Part shown: in pieces, positions 27,100 through 48,105 of the stretch
Position numbering within the stretch: position 1 is the first letter of the stretch
How the letters are laid out: every line of letters starts with the position of its first letter
Source: Chitinophaga pinensis
GTDB lineage: Bacteria; Bacteroidota; Bacteroidia; 2-12-FULL-35-15
DNA length: 64,000 nt
Direction: 5' to 3'
Assembly: GCA_945879015.1 (NCBI GenBank)
Contig: CAMCUO010000001.1
Coordinates: 42,659 to 106,658, forward strand
Translations under genes and position numbers: made by a program
The notes under the pieces: generated by a model
Seen by the model: the letters and a program-made list of their open reading frames with translations, nothing else
What the model was told of the DNA's origin: nothing
Database searches by the model: none

Positions 27100-29031
27100 A
27101 TGATTTCAGTAAATTCAGTTACGGTTTCCTTTGGAGGTTACGATTTGTTTGATAATGTTAGTTTTTTGGTGAATCCAAAAGATAGAATTGGTCTTGCCGG
27201 TAAAAATGGAGCGGGAAAATCAACAATGTTGAAGCTTTTGTCTGGAGAGCAAAATCCAACAAAAGGAGAAATTTCAAAACCAAATGATTTTCGAATAGGT
27301 TATTTGCCTCAAGATATGATTCATCAGCATGGAAGAACTGTGTTTGAAGAAACGGCAACAGCTTTTGAAGAGATTCAAAAATTAGAAATACGTTTAGGTG
27401 TTGTTTCGCATGAATTGGAAACTAGAACAGATTACGAGAGTGATGCTTATATGAATTTAATTACCGAGCTAACGGATATCAATACTCGTATGGATATTAT
27501 TGGAGCAGGTAATAGAGAAGAGGAGATAGAAAAAATATTAAAAGGATTAGGATTTGAGAGAACAGATTTTAATCGTCAGACAGCGGAGTTTAGCGGTGGA
27601 TGGCGTATGCGAATTGAATTAGCGAAAATTCTTTTGAAAAAACCTGATATTCTTTTATTAGATGAACCTACCAATCATTTGGATATTGAGTCTATTCAAT
27701 GGCTGGAAGAAACGATGGAGACATTTGCTGGATCTGTAATGTTGATTAGTCACGATAGGCAATTTTTAGATAACGTTACTACTCGTACTATTGAAATATC
27801 AAATAATAAAATTTACGATTATAAAACAAACTATTCTCGCTATTTAATTTTGCGTCAGGAACGTAAAGAGCAACAGGAGAATGCTGCAAAAAATCAGCAA
27901 AAAGTAATTGATCAAACAGAAGCATTAATTGATAAGTATCGCGCAAAGGCAAGTAAAGCAGCATTTGCACAATCCTTAATTAAGAAATTAGATAGAATGG
28001 ATTTGGTTGAAGTTGATGAAAGTGATACTTCAACAATGGCTTTTCGTTTTCCTCCTCCAGCTCTTTCTGGTAAAATTGTAGTTACGGTTGAAGATGCAGG
28101 AAAAGTATACGGAACAAAACGTATTTTCAAAGGAGCCAATTTTATTTTAGCAAAAGGAGAAAAAATTGCTTTAGTAGGTCGAAATGGTGAAGGAAAGAGT
28201 ACTATGATGAAAATGATTGCCCAACAAGTGGATTTTGAAGGAACGGTTCAGTTAGGTCATAATGTAATGATGGGTTACTTTGCTCAAGATCAGGCGGAGC
28301 GATTAGATCCTAACAAAACAGTTTTTGAAACCATTGATGAACTTGCGGTTGGTGATGTGCGAAAACAAGTTCGTACAATGTTGGGTTCGTTTTTATTCGG
28401 TGGTGAAGACATTGATAAAAAAGTGAGAGTATTAAGTGGTGGTGAGCGCGGAAGATTAGCATTGTGTAAACTATTGCTTCAGCCTTATAATTTGTTGGTA
28501 TTAGATGAGCCTACCAATCACTTAGATATTAGAAGCAAAGAAGTTTTAAAAAAAGCGATTCTTGCTTATGAAGGAACAGCAATAATTGTTTCTCACGACA
28601 GAGATTTTTTAGCAGACCTTACCGAAAAAATGTATGAGTTCCGAAATGGTGAAGTAAAGGAGCATTTAGGTGGTATTGTTGAGTTTATGGAAAAGCTAAA
28701 GATGTATCGACTAACAGAGATGAATACAAAAAGTCCTTTCATAAAAGCAAAAGTTGAAGTAAAAGAGGAAAAGCCCAAAGTAGATACCCGTGTTGCTGAT
28801 GAACGTGCTAAAGAGTTGAAAGTAATTGCAAGTCAGATAGCAAAATCGGAAAAGGAAATAGAGCGTTTAGAAGCGGAAATCAAACTTTTTGATGACAAAC
28901 TTTCAGACTCTTCGCAATATCAAGCTGTAGTAAATGATAAAGAAGCCTTTGCTAAGTACGAAGAATTGAAAAAGCAATTGAATTCTGAAATGCTTAATTG
29001 GGAAGGCTTACAAGGGAAAATAGAAGGTTAA
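27100..29031 (+). CDS. ABC-F family ATPase (tandem ABC domains plus a C-terminal coiled coil)
   Basis: Two copies of Walker A (GKNGAGKST and GRNGEGKST) and the signature motifs LSGGWRMR and LSGGERGR are present. There is no transmembrane domain. Confidence 0.9.
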   Translation: MISVNSVTVSFGGYDLFDNVSFLVNPKDRIGLAGKNGAGKSTMLKLLSGEQNPTKGEISKPNDFRIGYLPQDMIHQHGRTVFEETATAFEEIQKLEIRLGVVSHELETRTDYESDAYMNLITELTDINTRMDIIGAGNREEEIEKILKGLGFERTDFNRQTAEFSGGWRMRIELAKILLKKPDILLLDEPTNHLDIESIQWLEETMETFAGSVMLISHDRQFLDNVTTRTIEISNNKIYDYKTNYSRYLILRQERKEQQENAAKNQQKVIDQTEALIDKYRAKASKAAFAQSLIKKLDRMDLVEVDESDTSTMAFRFPPPALSGKIVVTVEDAGKVYGTKRIFKGANFILAKGEKIALVGRNGEGKSTMMKMIAQQVDFEGTVQLGHNVMMGYFAQDQAERLDPNKTVFETIDELAVGDVRKQVRTMLGSFLFGGEDIDKKVRVLSGGERGRLALCKLLLQPYNLLVLDEPTNHLDIRSKEVLKKAILAYEGTAIIVSHDRDFLADLTEKMYEFRNGEVKEHLGGIVEFMEKLKMYRLTEMNTKSPFIKAKVEVKEEKPKVDTRVADERAKELKVIASQIAKSEKEIERLEAEIKLFDDKLSDSSQYQAVVNDKEAFAKYEELKKQLNSEMLNWEGLQGKIEG

Positions 29032-29084
29032 ATTCGAAGCTTTTAAAATAAATTTGTTTTGTACTTGAATTATTACATATATTT

Positions 29085-29159
29085 GCCAAAGAAATGGAAA
29101 CAATGTTATCTATACATCATCATCATACTTACTCAACAGGTAAGCAGGAGATGTATTGT
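29085..29159 (+). CDS. Putative his operon leader peptide (24 aa, METMLSIHHHHTYSTGKQEMYCVN)
   Basis: Four consecutive His codons lie at 29106-29117. The peptide is followed by a terminator hairpin and then hisG. Confidence 0.5.
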
Positions 29160-29187
29160 GTGAATTAACACAAGATAGCAATATCAT

Positions 29188-29216
29188 ATATCTAAAGGGC
29201 TTACCATTGTGGTAGG
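29188..29216 (+). terminator. His attenuator terminator
   Basis: The stem gggcttacc/ggtaggccc has one G-U pair and a loop of attgt, and is followed by tttttt. Confidence 0.6.
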
Positions 29217-29264
29217 CCCTTTTTTATTTCCCCAATTTTGAATTAATAAAAACATACAATAAAC

Positions 29265-30119
29265 ATGAAACTAAAAATAGCAATACAAAAGTCAGGACGA
29301 TTGAATGAAGATTCTCTCAAAATTTTAAAAGAAGCTGGAATAGAATTTAATAATGGAATCAATAAATTGAAGGCCGAAGCAGTAAATTTTCCCTTAGAGG
29401 TGTTTTTCCTTCGCGATGATGATATTCCTCAATATATTGAAGATGGTGTTGCGGATATTGGAATCGTTGGCGAAAATGTAGTTCTTGAGAAAAATAAAGA
29501 TGTAAAAATTGTAGATCGTTTAGGGTTTGGCAAATGTCGTTTGTCAATTGCTATACCTAAAAATCAAAAATACAAAGGCCTTTCTGATTTAGAAGGAAAA
29601 CGAATTGCCACAAGTTATTCTAAAGTTCTTTCGAAGTATTTAAAGAAAAACAAAATAAATGCTGAGATACACGAAATAAGCGGGTCGGTGGAAATTGCTC
29701 CAGGAATAGGCTTGGCGGATGCTATCTGCGATTTGGTTAGCTCCGGAAGTACTTTATTCACAAACGGACTGAAAGAAGTGGAAGTGATATTGAAATCGGA
29801 GGCGGTTTTGGTTGCGAATAATAATTTATCAAAAGAGCAACAAGTTATTTTAGATAAATTACTTTTCAGAATAAATGCAGTTAAAAAAGCAAAGAGCAAT
29901 AAATATATTTTGTTAAATGCACCGAATAAAAATTTAGATGCGATCTGTAAGATTTTACCAGGCATGAAAAGTCCTACCATCTTGCCTTTGGCAGATAAAG
30001 GTTGGAGCTCTGTTCATAGCGTAGTAAATGAAAACGAATTTTGGGACATCATCGAAAAATTGAAAGCAAATGGAGCAGAAGGGATTTTGGTGGTTCCGAT
30101 TGAAAAAATGATACTATAG
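29265..30119 (+). CDS. hisG: ATP phosphoribosyltransferase (long form)
   Basis: MKLKIAIQKSGRL... is present, and a C-terminal regulatory domain is included. Confidence 0.92.
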   Translation: MKLKIAIQKSGRLNEDSLKILKEAGIEFNNGINKLKAEAVNFPLEVFFLRDDDIPQYIEDGVADIGIVGENVVLEKNKDVKIVDRLGFGKCRLSIAIPKNQKYKGLSDLEGKRIATSYSKVLSKYLKKNKINAEIHEISGSVEIAPGIGLADAICDLVSSGSTLFTNGLKEVEVILKSEAVLVANNNLSKEQQVILDKLLFRINAVKKAKSNKYILLNAPNKNLDAICKILPGMKSPTILPLADKGWSSVHSVVNENEFWDIIEKLKANGAEGILVVPIEKMIL

Positions 30120-30125
30120 CCATCT

Positions 30126-30149
30126 CCCTTCGACTCCGCTCAGGGTGAC
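30126..30149. repeat. Half-unit of the CTTCGACTCCGCTCAGGGTGAC repeat between hisG and hisD
   Basis: The sequence is cccttcgactccgctcagggtgac. Confidence 0.6.
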
Positions 30150-30175
30150 AATTAATTTAAACGAATAGCGAATCT

Positions 30176-31453
30176 GTGAAAACAATAAAATATCCATTAA
30201 GAAGTGATTGGTCTGAATTAATAAAACGACCAATTTTTGATAATGCTTCGCTTGAAAGTGCTGTTAAGGCTGTGTTGCTTGATGTTAAGCAAAATGGCGA
30301 TGTGGCAATAAAAAAGTATACAAAACAATTTGATAAAGTAGAACTTGAAAAGTTGCTTGTAACTGAAGAGGAATTTATAGAAGCAGAAAAAAATGTTTCT
30401 GATAATTTGAAAAATGCAATTCATTTAGCAAAATTAAATATCGAAAAATTTCACATTACTCAAAAAGAAGATATTAAAGTTGTTGAAACTACAGATGGTG
30501 TTTTGTGCTGGAGAAAATCGGTAGCAATCGAAAAGGTTGGTTTGTATATTCCTGGTGGTTCTGCTCCTTTGTTTTCCACTGTTTTAATGTTGGGAATTCC
30601 AGCAGCTCTTGCTGGATGCAAAGAAGTTTTATTATGTAGTCCGCCAGATATAAATGGAAAAATTAATCCTGCAATTTTGTACACAGCAAAATTAGTTGGA
30701 ATAACAAAAGTGTTTAAAGTTGGAGGAGCACAAGCAATAGCTGCAATGGCTTATGGAACTGAAACTATTTCGAAAGCGTATAAAATATTCGGACCAGGAA
30801 ACCAATATGTCACTTGTGCTAAACAATTGGTAAGCAGCGAAGGAATAGCTATTGATATGCCTGCTGGTCCATCAGAAGTGGCAACATTGGCGGACGAAAC
30901 CTGCGTTCCTGCATTTGTTGCTGCGGACCTTCTATCACAAGCTGAACACGGAGCAGATTCTCAGGTAATATTGGTTTCTACAGATGAGAAGGTCATTGAA
31001 GATGTAATTACTGAATTGAATAAACAAGTTGAATTGTTGCCAAGAAAAGCAATCGCTATCAAAGCCCTTGAAAACAGTAAAGCAGTTTTAGTCAAAGATA
31101 CAGATGAGGCTTTTGATTTATTAAATGAATATGCTCCTGAACATTTAATTATAGCTTGTAAGGATGAGGAAGTTTTAGCAGAGAAAGTGATCAATGCAGG
31201 ATCTGTTTTTTTAGGAAACTATTCTTGTGAAAGTGCAGGTGATTATGCTTCCGGAACAAATCATACCTTGCCAACCAATGGAAATGCAAAAGCATATAGT
31301 GGAGTTTCATTAGATAGCTTTATGAAAAAAATTACATTCCAGAAAATATCAGAAAGAGGAATTAATATCATTGGAAAAGCAATAGAAATAATGGCTGAGG
31401 CCGAGGGATTAAGTGCTCACAAGAATTCAGTAAGTATCAGACTAAAAAAATAA
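30176..31453 (+). CDS. hisD: Histidinol dehydrogenase
   Basis: Family-level match across the length. The apparent start is a GTG at 30176. Confidence 0.9.
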   Translation: MKTIKYPLRSDWSELIKRPIFDNASLESAVKAVLLDVKQNGDVAIKKYTKQFDKVELEKLLVTEEEFIEAEKNVSDNLKNAIHLAKLNIEKFHITQKEDIKVVETTDGVLCWRKSVAIEKVGLYIPGGSAPLFSTVLMLGIPAALAGCKEVLLCSPPDINGKINPAILYTAKLVGITKVFKVGGAQAIAAMAYGTETISKAYKIFGPGNQYVTCAKQLVSSEGIAIDMPAGPSEVATLADETCVPAFVAADLLSQAEHGADSQVILVSTDEKVIEDVITELNKQVELLPRKAIAIKALENSKAVLVKDTDEAFDLLNEYAPEHLIIACKDEEVLAEKVINAGSVFLGNYSCESAGDYASGTNHTLPTNGNAKAYSGVSLDSFMKKITFQKISERGINIIGKAIEIMAEAEGLSAHKNSVSIRLKK

Positions 31454-31457
31454 GATC

Positions 31458-32525
31458 ATGTTTCAATTAAACAATATATTAAGAGAAAATATCAAGAAAT
31501 TAGTTCCTTATTCATCTGCTAGAGATGAGTACAAAGGAAAGGTTGGAATATTTTTAGATGCCAATGAAAACTCATTTGGTTTCCCTGTTTCTTATGATGG
31601 CACAAGTAACTTAAATCGATATCCTGATCCTTTGCAATTATCTGTAAAAGAAAAGTTAAGCAAAATAAAAGGTTTACCTATTGAAAATATATTTTTAGGC
31701 AATGGAAGTGATGAGGCAATTGATATTTTATTCAGAGCATTTTGTAATCCTGGAAAAGATAATATTATTGTTTGTCCGCCTACCTATGGAATGTATGAAG
31801 TGTCTGCAAATATCAATGATGTTGAAGTTGTGAAGGTTCCTTTGATTGAAGAAACATTTCAATTGGATGAAGCAAGCATTCTTAAATCAATTAATGCCAA
31901 TACAAAGTTAATTTTTATTTGTTGTCCGAATAATCCTACAGGAAATGGTGTAGCATGGAATACTATTAAAAAAGTACGAGATAACTTTAATGGAATTGTA
32001 GTAATTGACGAAGCGTATATAAATTTTGCAAGTTATAGAAGTTTGATTCCTGAATTGTTGAACTATCCCAACTTAGTTATTCTGCAAACTCTGTCGAAAG
32101 CATGGGGTTTGGCTGGATTGAGGGTTGGAATGGCATTCGCATCGGAGCCAATAATAGCTATTTTTAATAAAATTAAGCCTCCTTATAATATTAATGTTGT
32201 TTCTCAAGAACTTGTATTAAAAGCTCTGGATAATATGAAACAAGTGAACGATTGGATCGAAACAATTGTTGAAGAGAGAGAGAAGTTTGGTTTAGAACTG
32301 AATCAACTGTCGTTTGTGAAGAAAGTATATAAAAGTGAAGCAAATTTTATTTTAGTAAAAGTGGAGGATGCTTCAGCATTATATTATTATTTAGCTCAAA
32401 ATCAAATTGTAGTTCGCGACAGAAGTAAAGTTGTTTTATGTGACGATTGTTTAAGAATTACAATAGGTACAAAAGAAGAGAACAGACAATTAATTTCCAT
32501 ATTAAAAAAATATAAAAATGGCTAA
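31458..32525 (+). CDS. hisC: Histidinol-phosphate aminotransferase
   Basis: The class II aminotransferase fold is present, with the PLP lysine in [14 protein letters not shown]. Confidence 0.9.
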
Positions 32526-33630
32526 GAAAGTATTGTTTATAGACAGAGACGGGACATTGATTTGGGAGCCGCCCACAGATTTTCAAATCGACAGTTTCGA
32601 GAAATTTAAGTTTTTACCTGGAGTAATTACCTGGTTAGGGAAAATAGTTTCTGAATTGGATTACGAATTGGTAATGGTTACCAATCAAGATGGGCTTGGT
32701 ACGGATAGCTTTCCAGAAAATACATTTTGGCCAGTACAAAATTTGATGATAGAAATATTGGAGTCGGAAGGAATAAAGTTCTCTGAAATTTGTATTGATA
32801 GAACTTTTGAAAAAGATAAGCAACCTACCCGTAAACCGAATACAGGTATGTTAACCAAGTATTTGAATGGTAATTACGATTTGAAAAAGTCTTTTGTAAT
32901 TGGTGACCGATTGACAGATGTGAAACTGGCTAAGAATCTAGGTTCAAAAGCAATTTTCATAAATAATTACGATAAAGCAGATGGTTTTGAAAGTGAGATC
33001 GCTCTTCAGGCAGAAAATTGGAAACAGATATATGATTTTTTGAAACTGCCTGAGAGAAAAATTGTTCAGGAGCGAATCACTAAAGAAACATCCATTTCTA
33101 TAGAATTGAATTTAGACGGCAAAGGAAATTCTAAAATTTCAACAGGCCTGGCATTCTTTGACCACATGCTGGAACAAATTGCTAAACATGGAAACATAGA
33201 TTTGAATGTTAATGCTAAAGGAGATTTGCAAATTGATGAACACCACACGATTGAAGATGTTGGAATTGCTTTGGGAGAAGCCTTCTTAAAAGCATTGGGA
33301 GATAAAAAAGGAATAGAAAGATATGGTTTCCTTTTGCCAATGGATGATTGTCTGGCACAAGTTGCTTTGGATTTTGGTGGAAGAAATTGGATTGTTTGGG
33401 AAGCAGAATTCAAGCGGGAGAAGATCGGTGAGATGCCTACTGAGATGTTTTTTCACTTTTTTAAATCATTCAGCGATGCATCAAAATGTAATTTGAATAT
33501 CAAAGCGGAAGGAACAAATGAACACCATAAGATCGAAGCCATTTTCAAAGCTTTTTCAAAAGCAATTAAGATAGCCGTAAAAAGAGATCCAAGCAATATG
33601 AGTTTGCCAAGTACAAAAGGAGTTTTATAA
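32518..33630 (+). CDS. hisB: Bifunctional histidinol-phosphatase / imidazoleglycerol-phosphate dehydratase
   Basis: The N-terminal HAD motif FIDRDGTL is followed by a C-terminal IGPD domain containing IDEHHTIED and EHHKIEA. Confidence 0.92.
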
Positions 33631-34212
33631 ATGAAAGTAGCAATAGTTAAATATAATTCGGGAAATAGCTGTTCAGTTGCATTTGCATTGGAGCGGATAG
33701 GTATTTCTGCTTTGATAACATCTGAAATAGATGAAATTAAAACTGCAGATAAGATCATTTTTCCTGGGGTTGGTGAAGCAAGCAGTGCTATGAAATTCTT
33801 GCGTGATCAAAAACTGGATAAAGTTATTGTTGGTCTAAAACAGCCGGTTTTAGGAATTTGTCTGGGGATGCAGTTGTTATGCGAGAAATCCGAAGAAGGC
33901 AATACGGATTGTTTGGGTATCTTCAAACAAAGGGTGTTAAAATTTTCTGAAGAGAATAAGGTTCCTCAAATCGGTTGGAATACAATATCGAATCTGAAAT
34001 CTCCTATTTTAAAAAATGTGAAAGAGATGGAGTACATGTATTTTGTCCATGGATATTATGCGGAAAAATCAGTTGATACAATAGCGAGTACAAACTATGG
34101 ATTGGAATACAGTTCGGCATTGCAAAAAGATAATTTTTACGGAGTGCAATTTCACCCTGAAAAATCAAGTGATGCAGGACAGAAAATTTTAGAAAATTTC
34201 ATAACCCTATAA
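33631..34212 (+). CDS. hisH: Imidazole glycerol phosphate synthase, glutamine amidotransferase subunit
   Basis: The GATase1 domain with the catalytic Cys in GICLGMQLL is present. Confidence 0.92.
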   Translation: MKVAIVKYNSGNSCSVAFALERIGISALITSEIDEIKTADKIIFPGVGEASSAMKFLRDQKLDKVIVGLKQPVLGICLGMQLLCEKSEEGNTDCLGIFKQRVLKFSEENKVPQIGWNTISNLKSPILKNVKEMEYMYFVHGYYAEKSVDTIASTNYGLEYSSALQKDNFYGVQFHPEKSSDAGQKILENFITL

Positions 34213-34214
34213 GC

Positions 34215-34937
34215 ATGCAAATAATACCAGCAATAGATTTGATAGATGGAAAATGTGTAAGGTTAACGCAAGGAGATTATACGCAAAAAATAATCTACAA
34301 TGAGAATCCGGTGGAAGTTGCAAAGCTATTTGAAGATATCGGAATTAAACGTTTGCATTTGGTTGATTTGGACGGAGCAAAAAAAGGAGAAGTTGTAAAT
34401 TATAAAGTGTTAGAAAAAATTGCTTCTCAAACAAAACTAATAATTGACTTCGGTGGAGGAATTAAAACAAGTGAAACTATTAAAATTGTTTTTGAATCCG
34501 GGGCTTCACTTGCAGCTATTGGCAGTGTTGCTGTGAAAGAGAAAGATTTGTTTTTTTCTTGGATAAAAAAATACGGTGCAGATAAAATTTTATTAGGTGC
34601 TGATGTGAATGAAGAAAAGATCGCGATCTCCGGTTGGCTAGAAAAGACAGAGATAAATATTTTCGATTTTATAAAAGAAAATATGAATGAAGGAGTTGAA
34701 ACTATTTTTTGTACAGATATTTCTAAAGATGGATTATTGCAAGGAGCAAGTGTTGGGCTGTATAAAAAAATTATTGAACAATTTCCAGCACTTAATTTAA
34801 TTGCAAGTGGCGGTGTTACATCGCTGAAAGATTTGGATGAATTAAAATGGATTGGTTGTTCCGGCGCTATTGTTGGTAAAGCAATTTATGAAGAGCGAAT
34901 TTCAATGAAAGATTTAAAGAAATACATAGCATGTTAA
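34215..34937 (+). CDS. hisA: ProFAR isomerase
   Basis: [17 protein letters not shown] is present. Confidence 0.92.
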
Positions 34938-35686
34938 CAAAACGAATTATTCCATGTTTGGATATTAAAGATGGCCGCACCGTAAAAGGTGTGAATTTTG
35001 AAAACATCAGGGATGCCGGAGATCCGATTGTGTTGGCAATTGAATATTCTAAACAAGGAGCAGATGAATTGGTTTTTTTAGATATATCTGCAACCAATGA
35101 AAAAAGAAAAACATTATCCGAAGTAGTAAATAGAATTGCAAAAAATATTAATATTCCTTTTACTGTCGGAGGTGGAATTAGTTCTGTTGAGGATGTTTAT
35201 GAGATATTAAATTCCGGAGCAGATAAGGTTTCTGTAAATACTTCTGCATTCAAGAATCCTTCATTGATCAATGATTTGGCAAAGAGATATGGAAGTCAAT
35301 GTGTGGTTGTTGCAATTGATACTAAGTTCGAAAATGATGACTGGTATGTTTATTTAAATGGAGGGAAAGTGAAGACAGAAAAAAAGGCAGCCGATTGGGC
35401 AAAAGAAGTTGTTGGTTTGGGGGCAGGTGAAATTTTATTGACATCGATGAACAATGACGGAACAAAAAATGGATTTGCAAATGACATCACAAGAGCGATC
35501 TCCGAAAGTGTAACTGTTCCAATTATTGCAAGTGGTGGAGCAGGAACGATGGAACACTTTAAAGATGTTTTTGTAACTGGGAAAGCAGATGCAGCGTTAG
35601 CTGCCAGTGTTTTTCATTTTAAAGAAATTGAAATTCCTACTTTAAAAAAATATTTAAACGAACAAAAAATAACAATAAGATTATGA
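34931..35686 (+). CDS. hisF: Imidazole glycerol phosphate synthase, cyclase subunit
   Basis: [19 protein letters not shown] is present. Confidence 0.93.
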
Positions 35687-36276
35687 TTCCAGATTTTAAA
35701 AAATTAACAGATGGATTAATTCCAGTAATTATTCAAGATAATAAAACAAATGTAGTTTTGATGTTGGGTTATATGAATGAAGAAGCATTTCAAAAAACGG
35801 CTGCAGAAAAACGTGTTACATTTTATTCGCGTTCAAAAAATCGTTTATGGACAAAAGGGGAGGAAAGTGGAAATTATTTGGAAGTAGACCAACTTTTATT
35901 GGATTGTGATCTTGATACAATTTTGATAAAAGCTAGTCCCAAAGGGGTGGTTTGTCATACTGGGGCAGATACCTGTTTTTGTGAGGTAAATAGCCCGAAT
36001 TTTCTGTATCAATTAGAGGAAACTATACGTAAAAGGAAGTCGAATCCGACCCAGGACTCTTATATTTCCTCGCTTTTTGCCAATGGGTTGAATAAAATAG
36101 CTCAAAAAGTGGGCGAAGAGGCTGTGGAACTTGTAATTGAGGCGAAAGACAATAACGATGAATTGTTTGTAAACGAGGCGGCAGATTTACTGTTTCATTA
36201 CTTGATTCTATTGTCAGCAAAGGGTTTTAGCTTAGATGATGTTATAGATGTGCTAGATAAAAGGGGCAAAAAGTAG
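35683..36276 (+). CDS. hisI: Bifunctional phosphoribosyl-AMP cyclohydrolase / phosphoribosyl-ATP pyrophosphatase
   Basis: The N-terminal HisI region LIPVIIQD is followed by a C-terminal HisE region ELVIEAKD. Confidence 0.9.
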
Positions 36277-36420
36277 TTCGTTTGGGCTTGAATATTTATT
36301 TTTAAGGCAATTTTTAGAGAAAAAATATCGTTTTTTAGCCCTAATATTTAATTAATTTTCTTATAATTGGTTAACTTTTGTAGGAAAATCAGCAGTTTTT
36401 AGATTAAGCTTGATTATTAT

Positions 36421-36999
36421 ATGGATTTAAATAAGAGCGGTTCAGTAGAAGAAGCCATTTTTGCTAATAAAGTAAATGGTATTAGGGCTGCTTTTAATGT
36501 TGCGGATAAGAAGATAATTGTTTCGCACATTGGAGAGCTGGATCAAGTTAAAGTGAATACCATCTCTACATTAGTGGAAACACAAATGGAGTACCTCGGA
36601 GTTAGCAAAAGTGCCATCAAAAAGATTTTTAATATTGTTATCGAAACACTTCAGAATATTTGTATTCATGGAGAAAAGGATAATAATGGTTATCAAATGA
36701 CTTATTTTATTATTGGTAAACACAATAATGAGTTTACTTTATTTTCTGGAAATATTATAAATAATACGATAGTAGAAAAGCTTAATAAGAGATTGAATTC
36801 TATAAAATCATTAGGTGATTCTGATTTAAAAAAACAGTATATGGATGTTCTTTCAAATGGGGAGCTTTCATCAAAAGGAGGCGCTGGTTTAGGTTTTTTA
36901 ACTATTGCTTTAAAATCAAATAACAACATAGATTTTGATTTTGAAATGTTAAATAAAGAGTATTCATTATTTTCACTTCAATCAAAAGTATTAGGATAA
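36421..36999 (+). CDS. Putative GHKL-type Ser/Thr kinase-like protein (SiaB / anti-sigma-factor-kinase-like)
   Basis: An N-box-like ETLQNICIHGE and a G2-box-like GGAGLGFLTIA are present. The gene is translationally coupled to the downstream DUF1987 gene, with a 1 nt gap. Confidence 0.4.
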   Translation: MDLNKSGSVEEAIFANKVNGIRAAFNVADKKIIVSHIGELDQVKVNTISTLVETQMEYLGVSKSAIKKIFNIVIETLQNICIHGEKDNNGYQMTYFIIGKHNNEFTLFSGNIINNTIVEKLNKRLNSIKSLGDSDLKKQYMDVLSNGELSSKGGAGLGFLTIALKSNNNIDFDFEMLNKEYSLFSLQSKVLG

Positions 37000-37000
37000 C

Positions 37001-37378
37001 ATGAAACGACTAGAATTAGCACCTTCGAACAATACTCCACATATTATTTTGGATGTAGATTCAGATGTTTTATTAATTGAAGGAAAATCTTTTCCAGAAG
37101 ATAGCAAAGAGTTTTATCGTCCAGTAATAGAGTGGATAGATGAATTGAAAACTACTAATCCTAGAAAAATTAAAATACGCTTTAATTTATTTTACTTAAG
37201 TTCATCATCTATAATATCCGTAAAACAATTTTTAATGAAAGCTGTTGAGTTGAGCAATGCAGGTGCACAAACAACTGTTTTATGGTCGTACGATGAAGAT
37301 GATGATGACATTAAAAAAATAGGAGAAGATTATCAAAAGTTGACGAAGTTAAATTTTGAATATAAAATCAACGAATAA
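37001..37378 (+). CDS. DUF1987 (SiaC-like) putative phospho-acceptor partner-switch protein
   Basis: GKSFPEDSKEFYRPVIEWIDEL and FNLFYLSSSSIISVKQFL parallel the SiaC family. The protein is 125 aa. Confidence 0.6.
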   Translation: MKRLELAPSNNTPHIILDVDSDVLLIEGKSFPEDSKEFYRPVIEWIDELKTTNPRKIKIRFNLFYLSSSSIISVKQFLMKAVELSNAGAQTTVLWSYDEDDDDIKKIGEDYQKLTKLNFEYKINE

Positions 37379-37392
37379 AATTTAATAGATGT

Positions 37393-37430
37393 AAGAAAAA
37401 ATCCCCAGACTTAAGCCTTTGGGGATTTTT
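37393..37430 (+). terminator. Rho-independent terminator
   Basis: The stem atcccca/tggggat is followed by a T8 run. Confidence 0.6.
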
Positions 37431-37607
37431 TTTGCTTTTATCAAATACTGAAAATGAAAAGAAAATAATTTTACACTTCCCCATAAATCAAGTACTTTGT
37501 TAGCTTTAGTTTATAACCAAACTTAGATTTAAGTTAAATTGATTACTAACCGCTATTTGTAGACTTATAACAGATGTAAGATTGGATGGTGTTTTGTTGG
37601 GGGATAT

Positions 37608-37639
37608 AGCTTTTCCAAAGTTCTAAACTTTTGGAAAGC
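37608..37639. repeat. REP palindrome A1 (agcttttccaaagttctaaacttttggaaagc)
   Basis: This is the first member of a REP doublet whose self-complementary arms are ttttccaaagtt/aactttggaaaa. The family has 6 copies, all within 37608-43368. Confidence 0.8.
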
Positions 37640-37682
37640 CGTTCTAATGATACTTTTCTGTTACGAGTGACTTTGTTGGTTT

Positions 37683-37714
37683 AGCTTTTCCAAAGTTCTA
37701 AACTTTGGAAAAGC
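37683..37714. repeat. REP palindrome A2, abutting the res stop codon
   Basis: The sequence agcttttccaaagttctaaactttggaaaagc is a perfect palindrome with a ctaa centre. Confidence 0.8.
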
Positions 37715-37716
37715 TG

Positions 37717-40332
37717 TTACATCTTCATAATTAGCTCTACGGCTTTATCTATGTTATAAGCACCTTCGGGAGCATTTTTGTCGAAAATCATCATATACTT
37801 ATACTTATCGGAACCTGATAATTCGGCCCAAACTTTACCTAGTTGCAATTTTTCTACACTATCTGAATTGTCTCTGTCAGAACCTTTTGTTTCTGCTAAT
37901 ATGACAATTTTCTTTTTTGTAACAATTATAAAATCAGGATAATGATTGGACTTGTATCCATTTAATGAAAATCCTTTACCTCTTGATAGATTTCTATGCC
38001 AAAAAGCAATATTTGAACATCCTGCTATTTTTAAAATAAATTCTTCTTCCAAAGAATTCATATCGCCTTCATGAACGTACAAAGAATTTCCAATATCGCC
38101 ACTGATTTTGCTAGGTATGATAGCTTTTGGAAAAGGCCAGGAAGGTTTTGTTTTAATAAGACCAATTACCTTATATTCAATAAATTGTTTTTCTGCGTGT
38201 ATGTCAGACAGTTTATTTATATGTTGCTTAATTTTGTCAGTGTAAGTTAGTTTACGTTGTATAAAATCTTTTAATTGTTCAGCATCTTTATCTTCTAAAA
38301 TACGGTTTATGTATTTTTTGATTTGCTGGTCAGGAATGGGATATATTTTACCAATTTGTTGCATTACTTGATGTGTAATGTCTTTTATTTGGCTCTCTCT
38401 AGGTTTTGCTAAAATAAATTCATTCAATCTTTGTTGATCTGAAGAGTTTTCTAGTTTGAAGGCACTCATTTTTGATTCATCTGATTTCGTTTGCTCAATG
38501 TCTATCTTATATAGTTCGGATGTAATGCCATCAAAAGGAATATCTATATCTTTTTCTGAAAGTTTAAAACCTCCTAATAGAGTTGATCGATCTAATAATT
38601 CTAGACCATCTGATTCCGAATTGAAAATACTTAGGTTGTCAGTAAGGAAAACAAATTTCGGCAAAAGGATAACTTTTGCCAGTTCTGCAACATTTTGTCG
38701 CATCCCATATTCTTTTATTTTTATTCCCACGTCAGAAAATATTTGTGTAGATGAGTTATTGTCAAATTCTGCAATTTGTTTTTCTATTTCAGCACTTTCT
38801 GAAATGGCAATCGTCTCAATTTCTTTTATGGAAGGAGGCGAAATAATTGAATTCCCTTTTTCTGTGCTAAAAGATATTTTATTTGTATTAAATGGTAGCT
38901 CTTCAGTTTTTATTTCAATAGTTGTTTCAATTTTTGTTTTTTCCTCTTCTGGCATTGCATCTTTTTCGCGATAATCTTTTTCACTGAACCCGGATTCTTT
39001 TAATCCTTTAATAATGTTCTGAAGTGTTTCATTAAATTTTGTAGATGCAGTAATTACGTAAGATAAATTTAATAAAGGGTCAGAATGTTTCATTACATAG
39101 GGTTGTCTAAGAATTCGACCTAAAATTTGTGTAACATCTACAGGTGATGATCTGTCTGCGAGTGATGCAAGGATATATGCAAAAGGACAATCCCAACCTT
39201 CCTTTAGTGCGTTGATTGTAATAACATATCTGACAGGGCAATTTTTATCTAAGAGATTAACTCCTTTTAATTCATCTTTATTGGCTGTTTTTATTTTTAT
39301 CTGTTGTTCAGGTATTCCAACTTTTATTAATTGTTCTTTTAGTTTATCAAAAGTGGTATTGTCTTCTTTTCCTTTAGATTGTGCCTGAAATAAAACTATA
39401 GGACGAATGTATTTTCCTCCTGTTGTTTCTTCTTGTTTTGCTAAGTCTTCTAATCGCTGTTGTAAATGCAAAGCACTTTCTATAACACCTTCTTTGTCCT
39501 GTTGATTGTAAACAATTACAGGCAGTTTTACCATGTGTTCCTTTTTAAGTTCAATGGCTGGAACCAAGCTGACAATATTAGCATTGTCTTTTGGGGTAGC
39601 TGTTAAATCAAGAATGAAACTAGGATTTAAATTACGTAGCATATCAACGCTCAAATCGCTTTCGGCATTATGGCTTTCATCTACCACTAAAATCGGATTT
39701 AAACTTCGGATAATATTTATCAATGATGTTTCATCTGTTCCTTCTAATAGATGCGATGTAGTTGCGTTTGATAATGCAAATGTTGACAATGCTCCGTTTT
39801 GCTCAAATATTTTTCTGTCATCCTTATTTTTTGCACGAATGGATGCAAAATTCATCACCATAATCGTTAGCTGTTCTTGAACAATGGATGGATTAAAGCT
39901 TGACCCTTGTAATAAATCTTTTTTCTCGTATACACAAATACGATTATTGAACAATGCATTTAATTTTTGGCAATAAGGATGATCGGGATCAGAAAGGTTT
40001 TTAACTGTTTGATCCAAAAGGTTGCTCCATGGAACTAACCATACTACAGCCTTTGTTTTGTTCTCTGGCATTGCATCAAAAATTGTTTTGATAGCATTGC
40101 AGGCAATGAATGTTTTTCCGCCAGCTGTTGGAACTTTAATACACAAGTGAACAGCATCAGGAACATTTTGTTGATAAGGGCGCATTCCTTCTTCGGAGAT
40201 AGGATTGTATGGACCAACTTTATCTCTCCAATAATTATTAAAAGCTTTATCTGCTTCTTTATCTTTTTGAAGATAAGCAAAGTAGTTAGAAAGATCCTGA
40301 ATGACCTGTTTTTGATACGATTTTAATTCCAT
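37717..40332 (-). CDS. Type III restriction enzyme, Res subunit (SF2 helicase plus a C-terminal PD-(D/E)xK nuclease)
   Basis: The helicase motif I PTAGGKTF, the DEAH-like LVVDESHN and motif VI QILGRILRQ are present. The C-terminal nuclease motif is YPDF...ILAETKG. Confidence 0.85.
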   Translation of the reverse strand: MELKSYQKQVIQDLSNYFAYLQKDKEADKAFNNYWRDKVGPYNPISEEGMRPYQQNVPDAVHLCIKVPTAGGKTFIACNAIKTIFDAMPENKTKAVVWLVPWSNLLDQTVKNLSDPDHPYCQKLNALFNNRICVYEKKDLLQGSSFNPSIVQEQLTIMVMNFASIRAKNKDDRKIFEQNGALSTFALSNATTSHLLEGTDETSLINIIRSLNPILVVDESHNAESDLSVDMLRNLNPSFILDLTATPKDNANIVSLVPAIELKKEHMVKLPVIVYNQQDKEGVIESALHLQQRLEDLAKQEETTGGKYIRPIVLFQAQSKGKEDNTTFDKLKEQLIKVGIPEQQIKIKTANKDELKGVNLLDKNCPVRYVITINALKEGWDCPFAYILASLADRSSPVDVTQILGRILRQPYVMKHSDPLLNLSYVITASTKFNETLQNIIKGLKESGFSEKDYREKDAMPEEEKTKIETTIEIKTEELPFNTNKISFSTEKGNSIISPPSIKEIETIAISESAEIEKQIAEFDNNSSTQIFSDVGIKIKEYGMRQNVAELAKVILLPKFVFLTDNLSIFNSESDGLELLDRSTLLGGFKLSEKDIDIPFDGITSELYKIDIEQTKSDESKMSAFKLENSSDQQRLNEFILAKPRESQIKDITHQVMQQIGKIYPIPDQQIKKYINRILEDKDAEQLKDFIQRKLTYTDKIKQHINKLSDIHAEKQFIEYKVIGLIKTKPSWPFPKAIIPSKISGDIGNSLYVHEGDMNSLEEEFILKIAGCSNIAFWHRNLSRGKGFSLNGYKSNHYPDFIIVTKKKIVILAETKGSDRDNSDSVEKLQLGKVWAELSGSDKYKYMMIFDKNAPEGAYNIDKAVELIMKM

Positions 40333-41970
40333 TTAAAAACGTGTGATATCACGCGGTATTTTTTTGAATTCAATATTGTTTAACAGCATGAATGGTTCGG
40401 GTAATAAGCAATTGTCAGCATAAATAATGTAACGCTCAGCTTTTGTTTTTACATTCTGAGCTAATGTTTTGTAATCAAGTGTTGTCAATTCATTTTTTTC
40501 ATAAATGAAGTAATAACCCGTATCATTATATAACCCTAAAAAGATATCATTTTTATTGCCAATAGAAGTTCGTGTTTCTGTAAACCAAATGTATTCTCTG
40601 ATTTTTTCTATTTCTACTTCTTCGTTTAAATTCTCTTCTTCATTAAATAGTGGTTGACCTAATGAATAAAAATCAAAACTGCCGCTAGTTCCTTCCTTAT
40701 CTGAATACCCATTTATTACCCGTTTCACTCTTTCTGCAGTTATGGTTCCTGCATAGTCTTCCATTTCTATTAAAATGAATTTACGATTGCCTCCATCTTG
40801 TTTGTTGAGATTCAGAACAGCATGGGCTGTTGTTCCACTGCCAGAAAAAGAATCAAGGATAATAGAGTTTTCATCACATAAAAAATTTATTAAGTATTGT
40901 ATTAATGAGTGTGGTTTTGGATAATCGAACACTTTATTGCCGAAAATTGAAAGCAATTCTCTTCCAGCATTTTCTGTTGTTTCAACACCATTGTCTAAGC
41001 TGATTAAGTTTGGAGGAACTTCATTGTTGTAATTTTCCTTTTTATAAGATAAAACAAGTGAAGACGAGCTAATATTCATTTTCGTATTATTTCCTATCTC
41101 CTCAATAAGTTTTTCTTGCACCCAAATAAATCTATTTTTAAAGCCAACTAAATTTTCATTTTTGTTGTCTTTTATTACTAAATCATTCAGTAATTCGTTA
41201 GGAAATTTTGCAGTGCCATAAATTCCTTTTTTAATAATCTTGTTATCAAGTTTTATATTTAATGTACCAGGAGGAAAATATAATTCTTTAATTGAGTTTT
41301 GAGGTTTAGTTAAGGGATCATCACTTTTGCTATCCTTTTTTATTCCAACAAATTTGTTAGAATTAACTCTTTTTGAATAACATAAAACATATTCCAGATT
41401 TTTTTTAATTTTATGTGATAGATTTGGTGGTGTGGCAGACTTAAGCCAATTGTAATATCCAATAAAATTATTCTCTCCGAATATTTCATCCATTATCAAT
41501 GTTAAATTCGCTACTTCATTATCATCAATCGAAATAAAAATTGCACCATCATCTGCCAATAATTTATGAAGTAATTTTAATCTGGGGTACATCATGCACA
41601 ACCATTTGTCGTGTCGGGTCAAATCATCAGTTCCAATCGTAGCTTCTTTCCCTTCGGTTTCTGCATTTAATGTTTTTTCTAGCCATTTTTTGATTTTTGG
41701 ATGGTTCACATTATCGTTGTAAACCCAGCCCTCATTTCCTGTATTGTAGGGTGGATCAATATAGATGCATTTTACTTTTCCTTCGTATTTAGGCAATAGT
41801 GATTTTAATGCTTCCAGATTATCTCCATGAATAATCATATTGCCACTTTCGGTAGGTGATTTTTGTTCTCCCTTTTCTGTAAATCCATATTTATGCTCAA
41901 GCACACGATAAGGTACATCAAGATGATGCTTGATGATTTTTTCCTTACCTATCCAATGAAGTGTGGGCAT
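40333..41970 (-). CDS. Type III R-M system N6-adenine DNA methyltransferase (Mod)
   Basis: The DPPY motif (IYIDPPYNTG) lies N-terminal of the FxGxG motif LDSFSGSGTT. The gene immediately precedes res on the same strand. Confidence 0.85.
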   Translation of the reverse strand: MPTLHWIGKEKIIKHHLDVPYRVLEHKYGFTEKGEQKSPTESGNMIIHGDNLEALKSLLPKYEGKVKCIYIDPPYNTGNEGWVYNDNVNHPKIKKWLEKTLNAETEGKEATIGTDDLTRHDKWLCMMYPRLKLLHKLLADDGAIFISIDDNEVANLTLIMDEIFGENNFIGYYNWLKSATPPNLSHKIKKNLEYVLCYSKRVNSNKFVGIKKDSKSDDPLTKPQNSIKELYFPPGTLNIKLDNKIIKKGIYGTAKFPNELLNDLVIKDNKNENLVGFKNRFIWVQEKLIEEIGNNTKMNISSSSLVLSYKKENYNNEVPPNLISLDNGVETTENAGRELLSIFGNKVFDYPKPHSLIQYLINFLCDENSIILDSFSGSGTTAHAVLNLNKQDGGNRKFILIEMEDYAGTITAERVKRVINGYSDKEGTSGSFDFYSLGQPLFNEEENLNEEVEIEKIREYIWFTETRTSIGNKNDIFLGLYNDTGYYFIYEKNELTTLDYKTLAQNVKTKAERYIIYADNCLLPEPFMLLNNIEFKKIPRDITRF

Positions 41971-41982
41971 ATTTGTTTTTAA

Positions 41983-42043
41983 GAATCAGATTTTGATTCT
42001 CAAATGTAATACATTTTGTATTAAAAATAAATACAAAATGTAT
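41983..42043. promoter_or_regulatory. Operator-like palindromes in the mod / HTH-gene divergent promoter region
   Basis: A 14 bp perfect inverted repeat atacattttgtatt (42009-42022) / aatacaaaatgtat (42030-43) has a 7 nt spacer. A second pair, gaatca-N5-tgattc, lies at 41983-41999. Confidence 0.45.
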
Positions 42044-42098
42044 GTCAATGATATACATGGCTTTAGCCATATAAAAACTAAAACAATGACTTTTGTGT

Positions 42099-42491
42099 AT
42101 GGCTAAAGTGCATATAGGCAAAAAGATCAAGGAGGTATTAGTGGAATCTAAATTCTCGGTAATAGAATTTGCTGAGAAAATCAGCAGAACACGCGATGTG
42201 GTGTATAAGATTTTTGCAAAGGAGAATATCGATACAGGTTTACTTCAGAAAATAAGCCAAGTCCTTGAACACGATTTTTTCAGTTATTACAGCCATGAAC
42301 TTCCAATAGTAAAAGAGCCTGGAAAAGTTGGGTATACTAAAAAGACAGATTTGATTAGTTCCATGGGAGAAGATATGAAAGCAATGAAGAAAAAGTTGGC
42401 GGAATGGGAAGAGAAATATGAAACACTTCAGAAGTTAAGTAGGCTGCAAGAAGAGAAGTTGGGGAAATTGGAGAAGAAAGGGAAGAAGTAG
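42099..42491 (+). CDS. XRE-type HTH transcriptional regulator with a C-terminal coiled coil (candidate R-M controller)
   Basis: The HTH segment is SVIEFAEKISRTRDVVYKIF. The start is taken at the ATG at 42099 (MAKVHIGKK...), whereas the ORF-track start at 42093 is a TTG. Confidence 0.5.
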   Translation: MAKVHIGKKIKEVLVESKFSVIEFAEKISRTRDVVYKIFAKENIDTGLLQKISQVLEHDFFSYYSHELPIVKEPGKVGYTKKTDLISSMGEDMKAMKKKLAEWEEKYETLQKLSRLQEEKLGKLEKKGKK

Positions 42492-42502
42492 GTTATGGCA
42501 TT

Positions 42503-42535
42503 AACTTTTCCAAAGTGTTAAACTTTGGAAAAGTT
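42503..42535. repeat. REP palindrome B1
   Basis: The sequence is aacttttccaaagtgttaaactttggaaaagtt. Confidence 0.75.
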
Positions 42536-42578
42536 TGTTCTAATAGTACTTTTCTTTAACGAATGCCTTTGTTGGGTT

Positions 42579-42610
42579 AGCTTTTCCAAAGTTTCAAACT
42601 TTGGAAAAGC
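42579..42610. repeat. REP palindrome B2
   Basis: The sequence is agcttttccaaagtttcaaactttggaaaagc. Confidence 0.75.
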
Positions 42611-42625
42611 TCTTTTATCTCGCAT

Positions 42626-43228
42626 TTACCAAGGTTCTATACCGGTTTGTTTTGGCGGGTGCAAATGAACATATTCAAAATTCTCTTTATCGCTAAATAG
42701 ATCTATTAACTCTTCTCTAAGCAATTGTGTTGGTTTGTCAGAAATCAAACTCTTATATGATGAGTTTTCCCAATCGATGGGCTTTTTAGCAAGTCCGGCT
42801 TCAACTGGATTGTAGTGAATATAATGGACAACTTTCAAAAGATATCTCATATCCGTAATTTTTTTACGTTTGAAATTCTTCATGAAAAGACTGCCTTTTC
42901 TTTTCTGTTGCTTATTAAATGCTTGAGTATAAGAACTGAAAAAATTTGAAAACTGTTTGCTCAGAATAGGACCGAATTCTTTGTCAGTATCGAAATTGTG
43001 GAAAGCTTTTTTTAATTCTTTTTCACTTTTAATGCGAATCAAGAAGTGGAAATGATTTGGGAGTAAGCAGTAGCAATAAGTATCTGCAATAGGATGGATG
43101 TATAATTTGTATTTTTCTAAAAAGAATCTGTAATTTTCCTGAGATAAAAAGATTGTTTCTTCTCCGTTTGCTCTATTGTATAAGTGATAAGTTTCATTTG
43201 GTGCGAGCAAAGACGCATAATCATTCAT
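42626..43228 (-). CDS. REP-associated tyrosine transposase (RAYT; Y1 HUH transposase of the IS200/IS605 superfamily)
   Basis: The HUH motif LLPNHFHFLI and the catalytic Tyr region YIHYNPVEAGL are present. The start is taken at M36 (MNDYASLL...), because the first 35 codons of the ORF-track ORF are simply a translation of REP C1. The gene is flanked by REP doublets. Confidence 0.8.
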   Translation of the reverse strand: MNDYASLLAPNETYHLYNRANGEETIFLSQENYRFFLEKYKLYIHPIADTYCYCLLPNHFHFLIRIKSEKELKKAFHNFDTDKEFGPILSKQFSNFFSSYTQAFNKQQKRKGSLFMKNFKRKKITDMRYLLKVVHYIHYNPVEAGLAKKPIDWENSSYKSLISDKPTQLLREELIDLFSDKENFEYVHLHPPKQTGIEPW

Positions 43229-43259
43229 AAAAGGTTTTAGTTTAAGATTTTGGTGAATT

Positions 43260-43291
43260 AGCTTTTCCAAAGTTCCAAACTTTGGAAAAGC
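43260..43291. repeat. REP palindrome C1
   Basis: The sequence is agcttttccaaagttccaaactttggaaaagc. Confidence 0.75.
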
Positions 43292-43336
43292 TGTTCTAAT
43301 GATAATTTTATTTAACGAATTGTTTTCTGTCATATT

Positions 43337-43368
43337 AGCTTTTCCATAGTTCTAAGCTTTGGAAAAAC
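43337..43368. repeat. REP palindrome C2 (degenerate)
   Basis: The sequence is agcttttccatagttctaagctttggaaaaac. Confidence 0.7.
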
Positions 43369-43373
43369 TGTTC

Positions 43374-43405
43374 TAAAAAAAAGCCGATACATTTCTGTAT
43401 CGGCT
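43374..43405 (-). terminator. Rho-independent terminator downstream of the tRNA
   Basis: A 10 bp stem agccgataca/tgtatcggct is followed by a T8 run on the minus strand. Confidence 0.75.
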
Positions 43406-43409
43406 GTAG

Positions 43410-43482
<73 letters not shown>

Positions 43483-43601
43483 ATATATCTTGGTTATAAT
43501 AGTCTTTATAGACGAAAAGCCTTCTCTGGGCTTTTTAAATTGCGGTGCAAAGATATATTTTGTTTCTTTGTACTCCAAATATCTTATTAACATTTTTTGA
43601 A

Positions 43602-44483
43602 ATGGCTCATAAATCTGGGTTTGTAAACATTATTGGCTCTCCAAACGTTGGTAAATCAACACTTATGAACGTTTTGGTGGGTGAACGTCTTTCTATCATT
43701 ACATCTAAAGCGCAGACGACTCGTCATCGAATTATGGGCATTGTGAATGGCGAGGATTTTCAAATTGTTTATTCAGATACTCCAGGAGTTTTAAAGCCAA
43801 ATTACAAGCTTCAGGAATCGATGATGGAATTTGTAAATACTGCTTTACAAGATGCAGACATTATTTTGTTTGTTACTGATATTTATGAAGACATTAAGAT
43901 AGAAGAAAAAGTACTCGAGAAAATTAAAAATACAAGTGCACACGTTCTCTTATTGGTAAATAAAATAGATCTTTCTTCACAGGATAAATTAGAAGAAAAA
44001 GTACAGTATTGGAAAAATGAAGTTCCTAAAGCAGAAGTAATTCCTGTATCTGCCTTAGAAAAATTTAATGTGACGTATGTGTTTGACCGAATTCTTGCTT
44101 TGCTTCCGGAAAGTCCAGGTTTTTATGATAAAGACCAATTAACGGATAAGCCAGAACGATTTTTTGTTTCTGAAATAATAAGGGAGAAAATTTTAACAAA
44201 CTATAAAAAAGAAATTCCTTATTCAGTTGAAGTAGTTGTAGAAGCATTTAAGAACGAAGAGAAGATAATTAAGATTCGTGCGGAAATAATGGTTGTGCGT
44301 GATTCGCAAAAGGGAATTATTATTGGACATCAAGGGAAAGCATTAAAAAAAGTTGGCACAGAAGCACGTAAAGACATGGAGGAGTTTTTTCAAAAGCAAG
44401 TGTTCCTTGAATTGTTTGTAAAAGTGAATAAAGATTGGCGTGACAGTGATACTCAGTTAAAACGATTTGGATATAGCGGTTAA
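43602..44483 (+). CDS. era: GTPase Era
   Basis: The G1 motif GSPNVGKSTL, the G3 motif DTPG and the G4 motif NKID are followed by a C-terminal KH domain. Confidence 0.95.
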   Translation: MAHKSGFVNIIGSPNVGKSTLMNVLVGERLSIITSKAQTTRHRIMGIVNGEDFQIVYSDTPGVLKPNYKLQESMMEFVNTALQDADIILFVTDIYEDIKIEEKVLEKIKNTSAHVLLLVNKIDLSSQDKLEEKVQYWKNEVPKAEVIPVSALEKFNVTYVFDRILALLPESPGFYDKDQLTDKPERFFVSEIIREKILTNYKKEIPYSVEVVVEAFKNEEKIIKIRAEIMVVRDSQKGIIIGHQGKALKKVGTEARKDMEEFFQKQVFLELFVKVNKDWRDSDTQLKRFGYSG

Positions 44484-48071: not shown

Positions 48072-48105
48072 GGAGGATAATGCTATAATGGAAAGAGTAT
48101 TATGA

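Follow-up and report, generated by a model that had tools for sequence, protein, structure and literature searches.

A two-gene SiaB/SiaC-family locus in Bacteroidota and its predicted role as a partner switch

A kinase gene and a phosphoprotein gene downstream of the his operon

We analyzed a 64-kb stretch of an ordinary Bacteroidota chromosome (Chitinophaga pinensis, contig CAMCUO010000001.1; hereafter the window), in which two adjacent open reading frames (ORFs) on the plus strand encode proteins of 192 and 125 amino acids (aa). The first is a predicted SiaB-family protein kinase and the second a predicted SiaC-family phosphoprotein, and a single base separates the stop codon of the siaB-like gene from the start codon of the siaC-like gene (TAA c ATG). 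Upstream of the kinase gene lies a promoter-like motif, TTTC-TTATAATTG, which we take to resemble the Bacteroidetes –7 promoter element TAnnTTTG. When the 170 nucleotides (nt) upstream of the kinase gene were aligned for 18 loci, TTTC.TAT.ATTG was kept in at least 80% of them, and it was retained with either upstream neighbor, hisIE or a divergent Cofac_haem_bdg gene. We infer that this motif is the promoter of the pair. Downstream of the siaC-like gene, the T-run is preceded by a hairpin with a 16-pair stem and a TCCCCA/TGGGGA core; it is the sole terminator-like site between positions 36100 and 37800 and was also recovered by the inverted-repeat search (as inverted repeat I3). With this conserved motif in front and the terminator behind, the pair makes up a transcription unit of its own, and its guanine-plus-cytosine (GC) content is slightly below that of the window (0.29 versus 0.34; window 33.9%). 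As to the upstream neighbor, comparison of the window with L013, L018, and L005 shows two arrangements: one subclade has the whole his operon (hisG to hisIE) separating ABC-F from the pair, and in the other the divergent Cofac_haem_bdg gene takes its place; the same promoter-like motif is kept in both.

Table 1 Positions in the window of the pair, its sequence signals, and the flanking features
Feature	Position	Strand	Basis or remark
his operon (hisG to hisIE)	29265-36276		upstream of the pair
Promoter-like motif TTTC-TTATAATTG	36357-36369	+	conserved; ends 52 nt 5' of the siaB-like ATG
siaB-like gene: 192-aa SiaB-family GHKL Ser/Thr protein kinase (predicted)	36421-36999	+	ORF and profile matches
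N box E75/N79 of the kinase	36643-36657	+	alignment with SiaB
G2 box K152-F159 of the kinase	36874-36897	+	alignment with SiaB
siaC-like gene: 125-aa SiaC-family (DUF1987) STAS-like phosphoprotein (predicted)	37001-37378	+	ORF and profile matches
Codon of the predicted phospho-acceptor Ser68	37202-37204	+	alignment with P. aeruginosa SiaC
Intrinsic-terminator-like hairpin, then T-run	37394-37433	+	16 nt 3' of the siaC-like stop codon
REP-like palindrome, copy 1	37608-37640
REP-like palindrome, copy 2	37683-37715
Type III R-M pair	37717-41970	-	downstream of the pair; res 37717-40332, mod 40333-41970
ORF	42093-42491		weak helix-turn-helix match
REP-like palindrome, copy 3	42579-42611
ORF	42626-43333		no match
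REP-like palindrome, copy 4	43260-43292
REP-like palindrome, copy 5	43337-43369

Profile searches assigned both proteins to the Sia families. The 192-aa protein matched Pfam DUF6272 (PF19788; E = 6e-32, 110.5 bits, threshold 26.6) and passed the curated cut-off of the NCBIfam model SiaB_fam_kinase (NF038262; 119.6 bits, cut-off 85), and the 125-aa protein matched Pfam SiaC/DUF1987 (PF09345; E = 6.5e-29, 100.5 bits, gathering threshold 24.5) over positions 3–117 of the 120-position model. Because both fell below the equivalog cut-offs for Pseudomonas aeruginosa SiaB (NF038264; 55.6 versus 225 bits) and SiaC (NF038265; 77.8 versus 150 bits), we regard them as members of the families and not as orthologs of the P. 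aeruginosa proteins. By sequence, the best solved structure for each was the P. aeruginosa SiaB–SiaC complex (6kko_A, E = 7.7e-5, for the 192-aa protein; 6kko_C, E = 4.5e-12, for the 125-aa protein), and the predicted fold of the 192-aa protein is the GHKL (Bergerat) ATP-binding fold, nearest to SiaB. Neither protein had a STAS or HATPase_c_2 Pfam match at E ≤ 1, so that the similarity to those domains is one of fold only. These results bear out a first-pass annotation made from the sequence alone, which had called the 125-aa protein SiaC-like from its FPEDS, IEWIDEL, and FYLSSSSI segments and the 192-aa protein a GHKL, SiaB-like kinase from its N and G2 boxes: all of these motifs are present, the profiles on which the annotation had staked both calls placed the proteins as it claimed, and the predicted folds agree. 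The his operon and the island of restriction–modification (R-M) genes and repetitive extragenic palindromic (REP)-like repeats likewise lie upstream and downstream of the pair, as it had described.

The residues expected to matter for the reaction are in place. Within the kinase, IETLQNICIH aligns with IEMTQNIRHY of SiaB and KGGAGLGF with SGAGLGL; the N-box residues E75 and N79, H83, G110-N111, and the G2 box K152-GGAGLGF159 all align with SiaB and are invariant in 14 homologs (61–89% identical to the window kinase). The ATP-binding motifs of the kinase are intact. For the 125-aa protein, Y65-L-S-S68-S-S-I aligned to Y65-L-N-T68-S-S-I of P. aeruginosa SiaC, in which SiaB phosphorylates T68 and SiaA removes the phosphate (PMC7647112, PMC8457831). 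S68 opens helix 68–86 in the predicted model. In an alignment of 42 SiaC sequences (41 distinct Bacteroidota proteins and the P. aeruginosa reference), 37 have Ser at position 68 and 5 have Thr, and Y65, G28, P32, E33, and W95 are invariant.

Recurrence and conservation of the pair in Bacteroidota

The family assignment as such is already known through NCBI automatic annotation, in which such proteins are labelled "SiaB family protein kinase" or "DUF1987 domain-containing protein," the former name being given to several relatives of the kinase. A database search at E ≤ 0.001 returned 186 relatives of the kinase; the best 120 share 62% identity or more with it, and almost all of these are exactly 192 aa in length and come from uncultured Bacteroidota; relatives of the SiaC-like protein show the same pattern. 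A representative library of 1.84 billion sequences holds 2,548 members of the family at E ≤ 0.001, with the window's clade forming a single 50%-identity cluster, and a scan of species-representative genomes returned at least 589 loci encoding a SiaB relative, the best 80 being nearly all from Bacteroidota (two are labelled as other taxa).

To describe neighborhoods, we used a sample of 91 loci (the window and 90 relatives) in which ORFs were called and clustered and the clusters annotated. A SiaC gene lies next to the siaB-like gene on the same strand in 50 of the 91 (hidden Markov model (HMM) search), and the housekeeping contexts of these pairs are of at least five unrelated kinds. In the window's clade (context A), the pair follows hisIE, or ABC-F and the haem-binding-cofactor gene, and a gene for a PKD protein with a type IX secretion system (T9SS) tail often comes next. 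Elsewhere the pair stands beside giant T9SS cargo genes (context D), after DUF4197, phosphorylase, and transglutaminase-like genes (context F), or, in Cytophagales (context E), between a HAMP-GAF-PAS-SpoIIE gene and a fused ATP-binding cassette (ABC) transporter gene. At L092:719-2315, a 385-aa tandem double-SiaB protein with SiaC encoded downstream is found among pyrH, tsf, and rpsB; most of the distant relatives in the representative library (P0242-P0389) are likewise ~365–385 aa long with two tandem SiaB-like domains. Because the stand-alone pair recurs across the sampled loci, we conclude that standing alone is the rule in Bacteroidota and not an accident of the window's locus.

siaB-like genes without SiaC follow a deoxynucleoside-kinase gene (context B, a 191-aa protein) or the genes for a disulphide oxidoreductase and a CxxCxxCC protein (context C). 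Solitary siaB-like genes, seen in about 40% of the sampled loci, were recorded at L037, L044-L048, L051-L059, L061-L063, L066-L071, L075-L076, L078-L083, L085, and L089-L090. These solitary kinases are ~191 aa long with intact motifs, and several have a PAS- or Y_Y_Y-SiaA-type PP2C gene a few genes away.

Both genes of the pair are under strong, housekeeping-level purifying selection. Compared with species-level relatives, the nonsynonymous measure pN is far below the synonymous measure pS for both genes, and dN/dS for SiaB is 0.04–0.1 where dS is unsaturated. Conservation of SiaB across relatives equals that of ABC-F, HisG, and HisB, and the rate of evolution of SiaC is two to three times that of SiaB.

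Phosphatases, output, and the proposed switch

In P. aeruginosa, the only organism from which the Sia switch is known, it regulates a cyclic di-GMP (c-di-GMP) cyclase. Pfam scans found no PP2C/SpoIIE, GGDEF, STAS, or sigma-factor gene in the 64-kb window, and a search of all six frames with a SpoIIE HMM and the GG(D/E)EF motif found nothing. We read the flanks from metagenome contigs on which the genes at either end of the window recur in identical form, and PP2C, GGDEF, STAS, and sigma-factor genes were likewise absent from ~10 kb past the right end and ~5 kb past the left end. Across the 91 loci, six-frame ORFs with a total of 807,428 residues contained 0 matches to the pattern G[GA][DE]EF. 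That none of the sampled loci links the kinase–phosphoprotein core to a cyclase points to a different output in Bacteroidota, and the output of the pair is probably not a diguanylate cyclase.

Phosphatases of the SiaA type do occur near relatives of the pair. A SpoIIE HMM built from type-E proteins picked up PP2C genes at 13 of the 91 loci, 16 in all, with a tightly linked phosphatase in only about five. A SiaA-type PP2C is operonic with the pair at L060, L072, and L074 and with a SiaB paralogue and SiaC at L028; it lies immediately downstream of the pair and convergent to it in L011, the closest species-level relative of the window (a sister species; SiaB 92% identical), and 3 kb downstream at L091. 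Among PDB entries, the best match of the L011 PP2C domain was 6k4e, the SiaA PP2C structure from P. aeruginosa (E = 3.8e-29; next match, 6e-4), and all six PP2C proteins tested scored 160–213 bits on the catalytic part of the NCBIfam model prot_phos_SiaA, against at most 31 on other PP2C models. Sensor regions of the PP2C genes near the pair are diverse (TPR-transmembrane (TM), PAS, Y_Y_Y/propeller, HAMP, HAMP-GAF-PAS, multi-TM), and more than 7,900 database proteins match this SiaA-like PP2C domain at E ≤ 1e-10, the best 120 being 53–69% identical. Since the window's lineage has a SiaA-type PP2C (L011, L091), the phosphatase of the window's pair is probably unlinked rather than absent.

The first-pass annotation had described the pair as an orphan, with no PP2C or GGDEF gene adjacent and without the SiaA phosphatase or SiaD cyclase. 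The lack of such neighbors holds for the entire window, and "orphan" fits the locus, but it does not fit the system: the lineage does have a SiaA-type phosphatase, and a stand-alone pair is normal in the clade and in many other Bacteroidota, so that the word describes the locus and not a decayed system. The recurrence of the stand-alone pair is also consistent with the suggestion that it may act as a stand-alone partner-switch module.

Two of the phosphatase-bearing arrangements deserve description. The L028 operon (L028:8132-12122) encodes a multi-TM SiaA-type PP2C (466 aa), a lipoprotein (264 aa), a SiaB paralogue (181 aa), and a 126-aa SiaC with a Thr acceptor; the clade's 192-aa SiaB, without a SiaC of its own, is convergent to this operon, giving two kinases and one substrate. 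In the Cytophagales loci L060, L072, and L074 (e.g. L060:6826-14712), the SiaA-SiaB-SiaC operon (HAMP-GAF-PAS-PP2C, kinase, Thr-type SiaC) is followed by genes for a fused ABC ATPase-permease (1,033 aa, the N-terminal 270 of them unannotated) and for two uncharacterised proteins, which together are a candidate non-cyclase output.

SiaC itself differs between the two kinds of locus. Stand-alone SiaC proteins, that of the window included, carry YLSSSSIIS and an acidic run (D98-E-D-D-D-D103), whereas SiaC from phosphatase operons carries YFNT.SSK, like YLNTSSIK of P. aeruginosa; the stand-alone pair is on this basis a distinct subtype. Comparison with P. aeruginosa SiaABCD (PA0172-PA0169; structures 6KKO, 6KKP, 6K4F, 6K4E, and 7E6G) brings out further differences: the proteins of the pair are only 22–25% identical to their P. 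aeruginosa counterparts, the acceptor is Ser and not Thr, a conserved helix of ~20 residues is added at the N-terminus of the kinase, the acidic run is conserved where P. aeruginosa SiaC has DRRNER, and the operon is set among housekeeping genes, with neither siaA nor siaD in it or in the window and no siaD in the 91 related loci. Like RsbW–RsbV and SpoIIAB–SpoIIAA, the pair combines a GHKL Ser kinase with a small α/β phosphoprotein whose acceptor Ser stands at the start of helix α2, and reset by a PP2C would be expected. The cyanobacterial two-gene pair slr1658/slr1659 (NCBIfam NF047703 and NF047705) is distant kin of SiaB and SiaC, but the matches are weak (22.8 versus 100 and 18.5 versus 100 bits), which places it in a different branch of the superfamily. 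Our literature search found nothing on DUF6272 or SiaB/SiaC in Bacteroidota, and the papers it returned cover P. aeruginosa SiaABCD only. The stand-alone subtype, its Ser acceptor, the lack of a linked cyclase in the phylum sample, and the coexisting expansion of SiaA-type phosphatases thus appear to be undescribed.

We propose, as a fairly probable reading, that the pair is a SiaABC-type partner switch with input from an unlinked SiaA-type phosphatase and an output other than a diguanylate cyclase. By homology with P. aeruginosa SiaB and SiaC, the 192-aa kinase would phosphorylate Ser68 of the 125-aa protein, and only the unphosphorylated SiaC would bind and modulate a target protein, presumably not a diguanylate cyclase. 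Judging from the relatives, the switch would be reset by at least one sensor phosphatase, a SiaA-type PP2C encoded away from the pair. Unlinked components and an enzymatic output have a precedent among partner switches (bioRxiv 10.64898/2026.04.08.717354). Several observations weigh against this proposal. No phosphatase lies in the roughly 79 kb examined around the locus. The closeness of PP2C genes to siaB-like genes may be mere background if the genomes carry tens of them. No SiaC was found within 10 kb of the siaB-like gene in 41 of the 91 loci (HMM search), so the kinase may have other roles. Finally, because SiaC from phosphatase operons is of a different subtype, the phosphatase link is only indirect for the subtype found in the window.

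A broader version, which we offer tentatively and consider rather doubtful, is that the pair is a common phospho-switch hub for the expanded SiaA-type sensor phosphatases of Bacteroidota, with a c-di-GMP-independent target under the unphosphorylated form. Many environmental inputs would then converge on one Ser68 switch, whose target might be linked to the cell surface or to gliding/T9SS. If the pair were the target of thousands of SiaA-type phosphatases, a sizeable share of Bacteroidota signaling that lacks annotation would be explained, and a substrate could be named for many of the phylum's "RsbU-like" phosphatases. The interest of the system lies in this phylum-wide pattern and in the question of output rather than in the window's own locus.

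The partner switch proposed above treats SiaC as the effector. The main rival, an anti-sigma-like logic, would instead make the kinase the effector, one that sequesters a sigma factor or some other protein in the manner of RsbW and SpoIIAB, with the SiaC-like protein as antagonist only. The stronger conservation of the kinase relative to SiaC and the existence of solitary siaB genes speak for such an arrangement, but a sigma-factor gene adjoins the pair neither in the window nor in any of the conserved neighborhoods, and P. aeruginosa SiaB binds SiaC and not the output SiaD, SiaC being the effector (PMC7278518). We consider this alternative unlikely.

Comparison with L011 at the DNA level bears on two further alternatives. 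Window positions 29030-37379 are syntenic with L011 2558-10960. The 6 kb that follow in the window (37380-43376: REP-like repeats, res, mod, and two ORFs) correspond to L011:10961-13257, a single gene for a 703-aa TPR-TM-SpoIIE protein (SiaA-type PP2C), of which the window retains no remnant (tblastn, best E 6.1), and homology resumes at the tRNA-Met and era block (43377-44483), which is inverted relative to L011, L013, and L015. Because homology stops just after the siaC stop codon (~37379) and before the hairpin at 37394-37433, the island starts after the pair. The absence of siaA and siaD genes from the window, together with the SiaA-type PP2C that L011 has where the window has the R-M island, could suggest that the pair is a decaying, non-signaling remnant of a SiaABCD operon that lost both. 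Against this, both ORFs are intact and under the purifying selection described above, the catalytic and acceptor residues are invariant, and the same stand-alone pair is found across the clade (62–100% kinase identity) and in other Bacteroidota orders; moreover, no related locus has a GGDEF gene, which gives no sign that siaD was ever linked. Decay is therefore very improbable. Still less credible is that the pair belongs to the adjacent defense or mobile island, for instance as a regulator or an abortive infection-like module: it directly adjoins the island and is slightly lower in GC than the window, but relatives carry it at the same syntenic position without R-M genes, the island begins past it, and neither protein matched a PADLOC-DB defense model (0 families at E ≤ 0.01).

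The island and other neighbors of the pair

The window begins with ftsA, ftsZ, groEL, secG, lptE, a sigma-54 activator gene, miaB, and topA, followed by porP/sprF, gldK-like, gldL, gldM, and gldN and then by AI-2E transporter, ydjM, DUF983, AraC regulator, and ABC-F genes, hisGDCBHAF-IE, and the pair. Beyond the pair lie the Type III res/mod genes, two ORFs without assigned function, tRNA-Met, era, der, metK, a DUF559 gene, an M13 peptidase gene, and further housekeeping genes. Rfam and tRNA scans returned only tRNA-Met. Both res and mod were PADLOC matches, as Type III R-M. A 33-nt REP-like palindrome, AGCTTTTCCAAAGTT-NNN-AACTTTGGAAAAGCT, occurs in five copies in the window (0 expected by chance), all within the variable segment from siaC to tRNA-Met, where they bracket the R-M genes and the two ORFs. 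Because one copy falls inside the called 5' part of the ORF at 42626-43333, the start of that ORF may be wrong.

At eight closely related loci (L007, L008, L009, L010, L018, L019, L025, and L026; e.g. L009:11111-19596), a cluster near the pair comprises a DUF7793 gene (weak SpoIIAA-like/STAS match), a gene for a ~1,000-aa MASE1-PAS histidine kinase, and response regulator genes (LytTR, hybrid histidine kinase, Hpt). This cluster may be a second STAS-like signaling element. These loci belong to one subclade, the distance and orientation of the cluster vary, and L005 is without it; we read it as clade synteny and not as a demonstrated partner of the pair. The two ORFs of the window's island, considered as the DUF7793 (STAS-like) and LytTR genes of L009 and L010, were ruled out as such by Pfam. 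PKD/Por_Secre_tail (T9SS cargo) genes, which adjoin the pair in two architectures, were also rejected as partners; they encode secreted proteins, which makes a cytoplasmic partner role unlikely.

Further from the pair, the window's FtsZ (1303-3396) is unusually long at 697 aa; both its Tubulin and its FtsZ_C domain lie within the first 317 residues, and ~380 aa extend beyond them at the C-terminus. Finally, a minus-strand DUF559 ORF (Vsr-like endonuclease domain; 48106-48564) lies in a stretch of ~620 bp (48018-48640) that is missing from L011 and L013, in which metK adjoins the M13 peptidase gene; the stretch looks like a small lineage-specific insertion.
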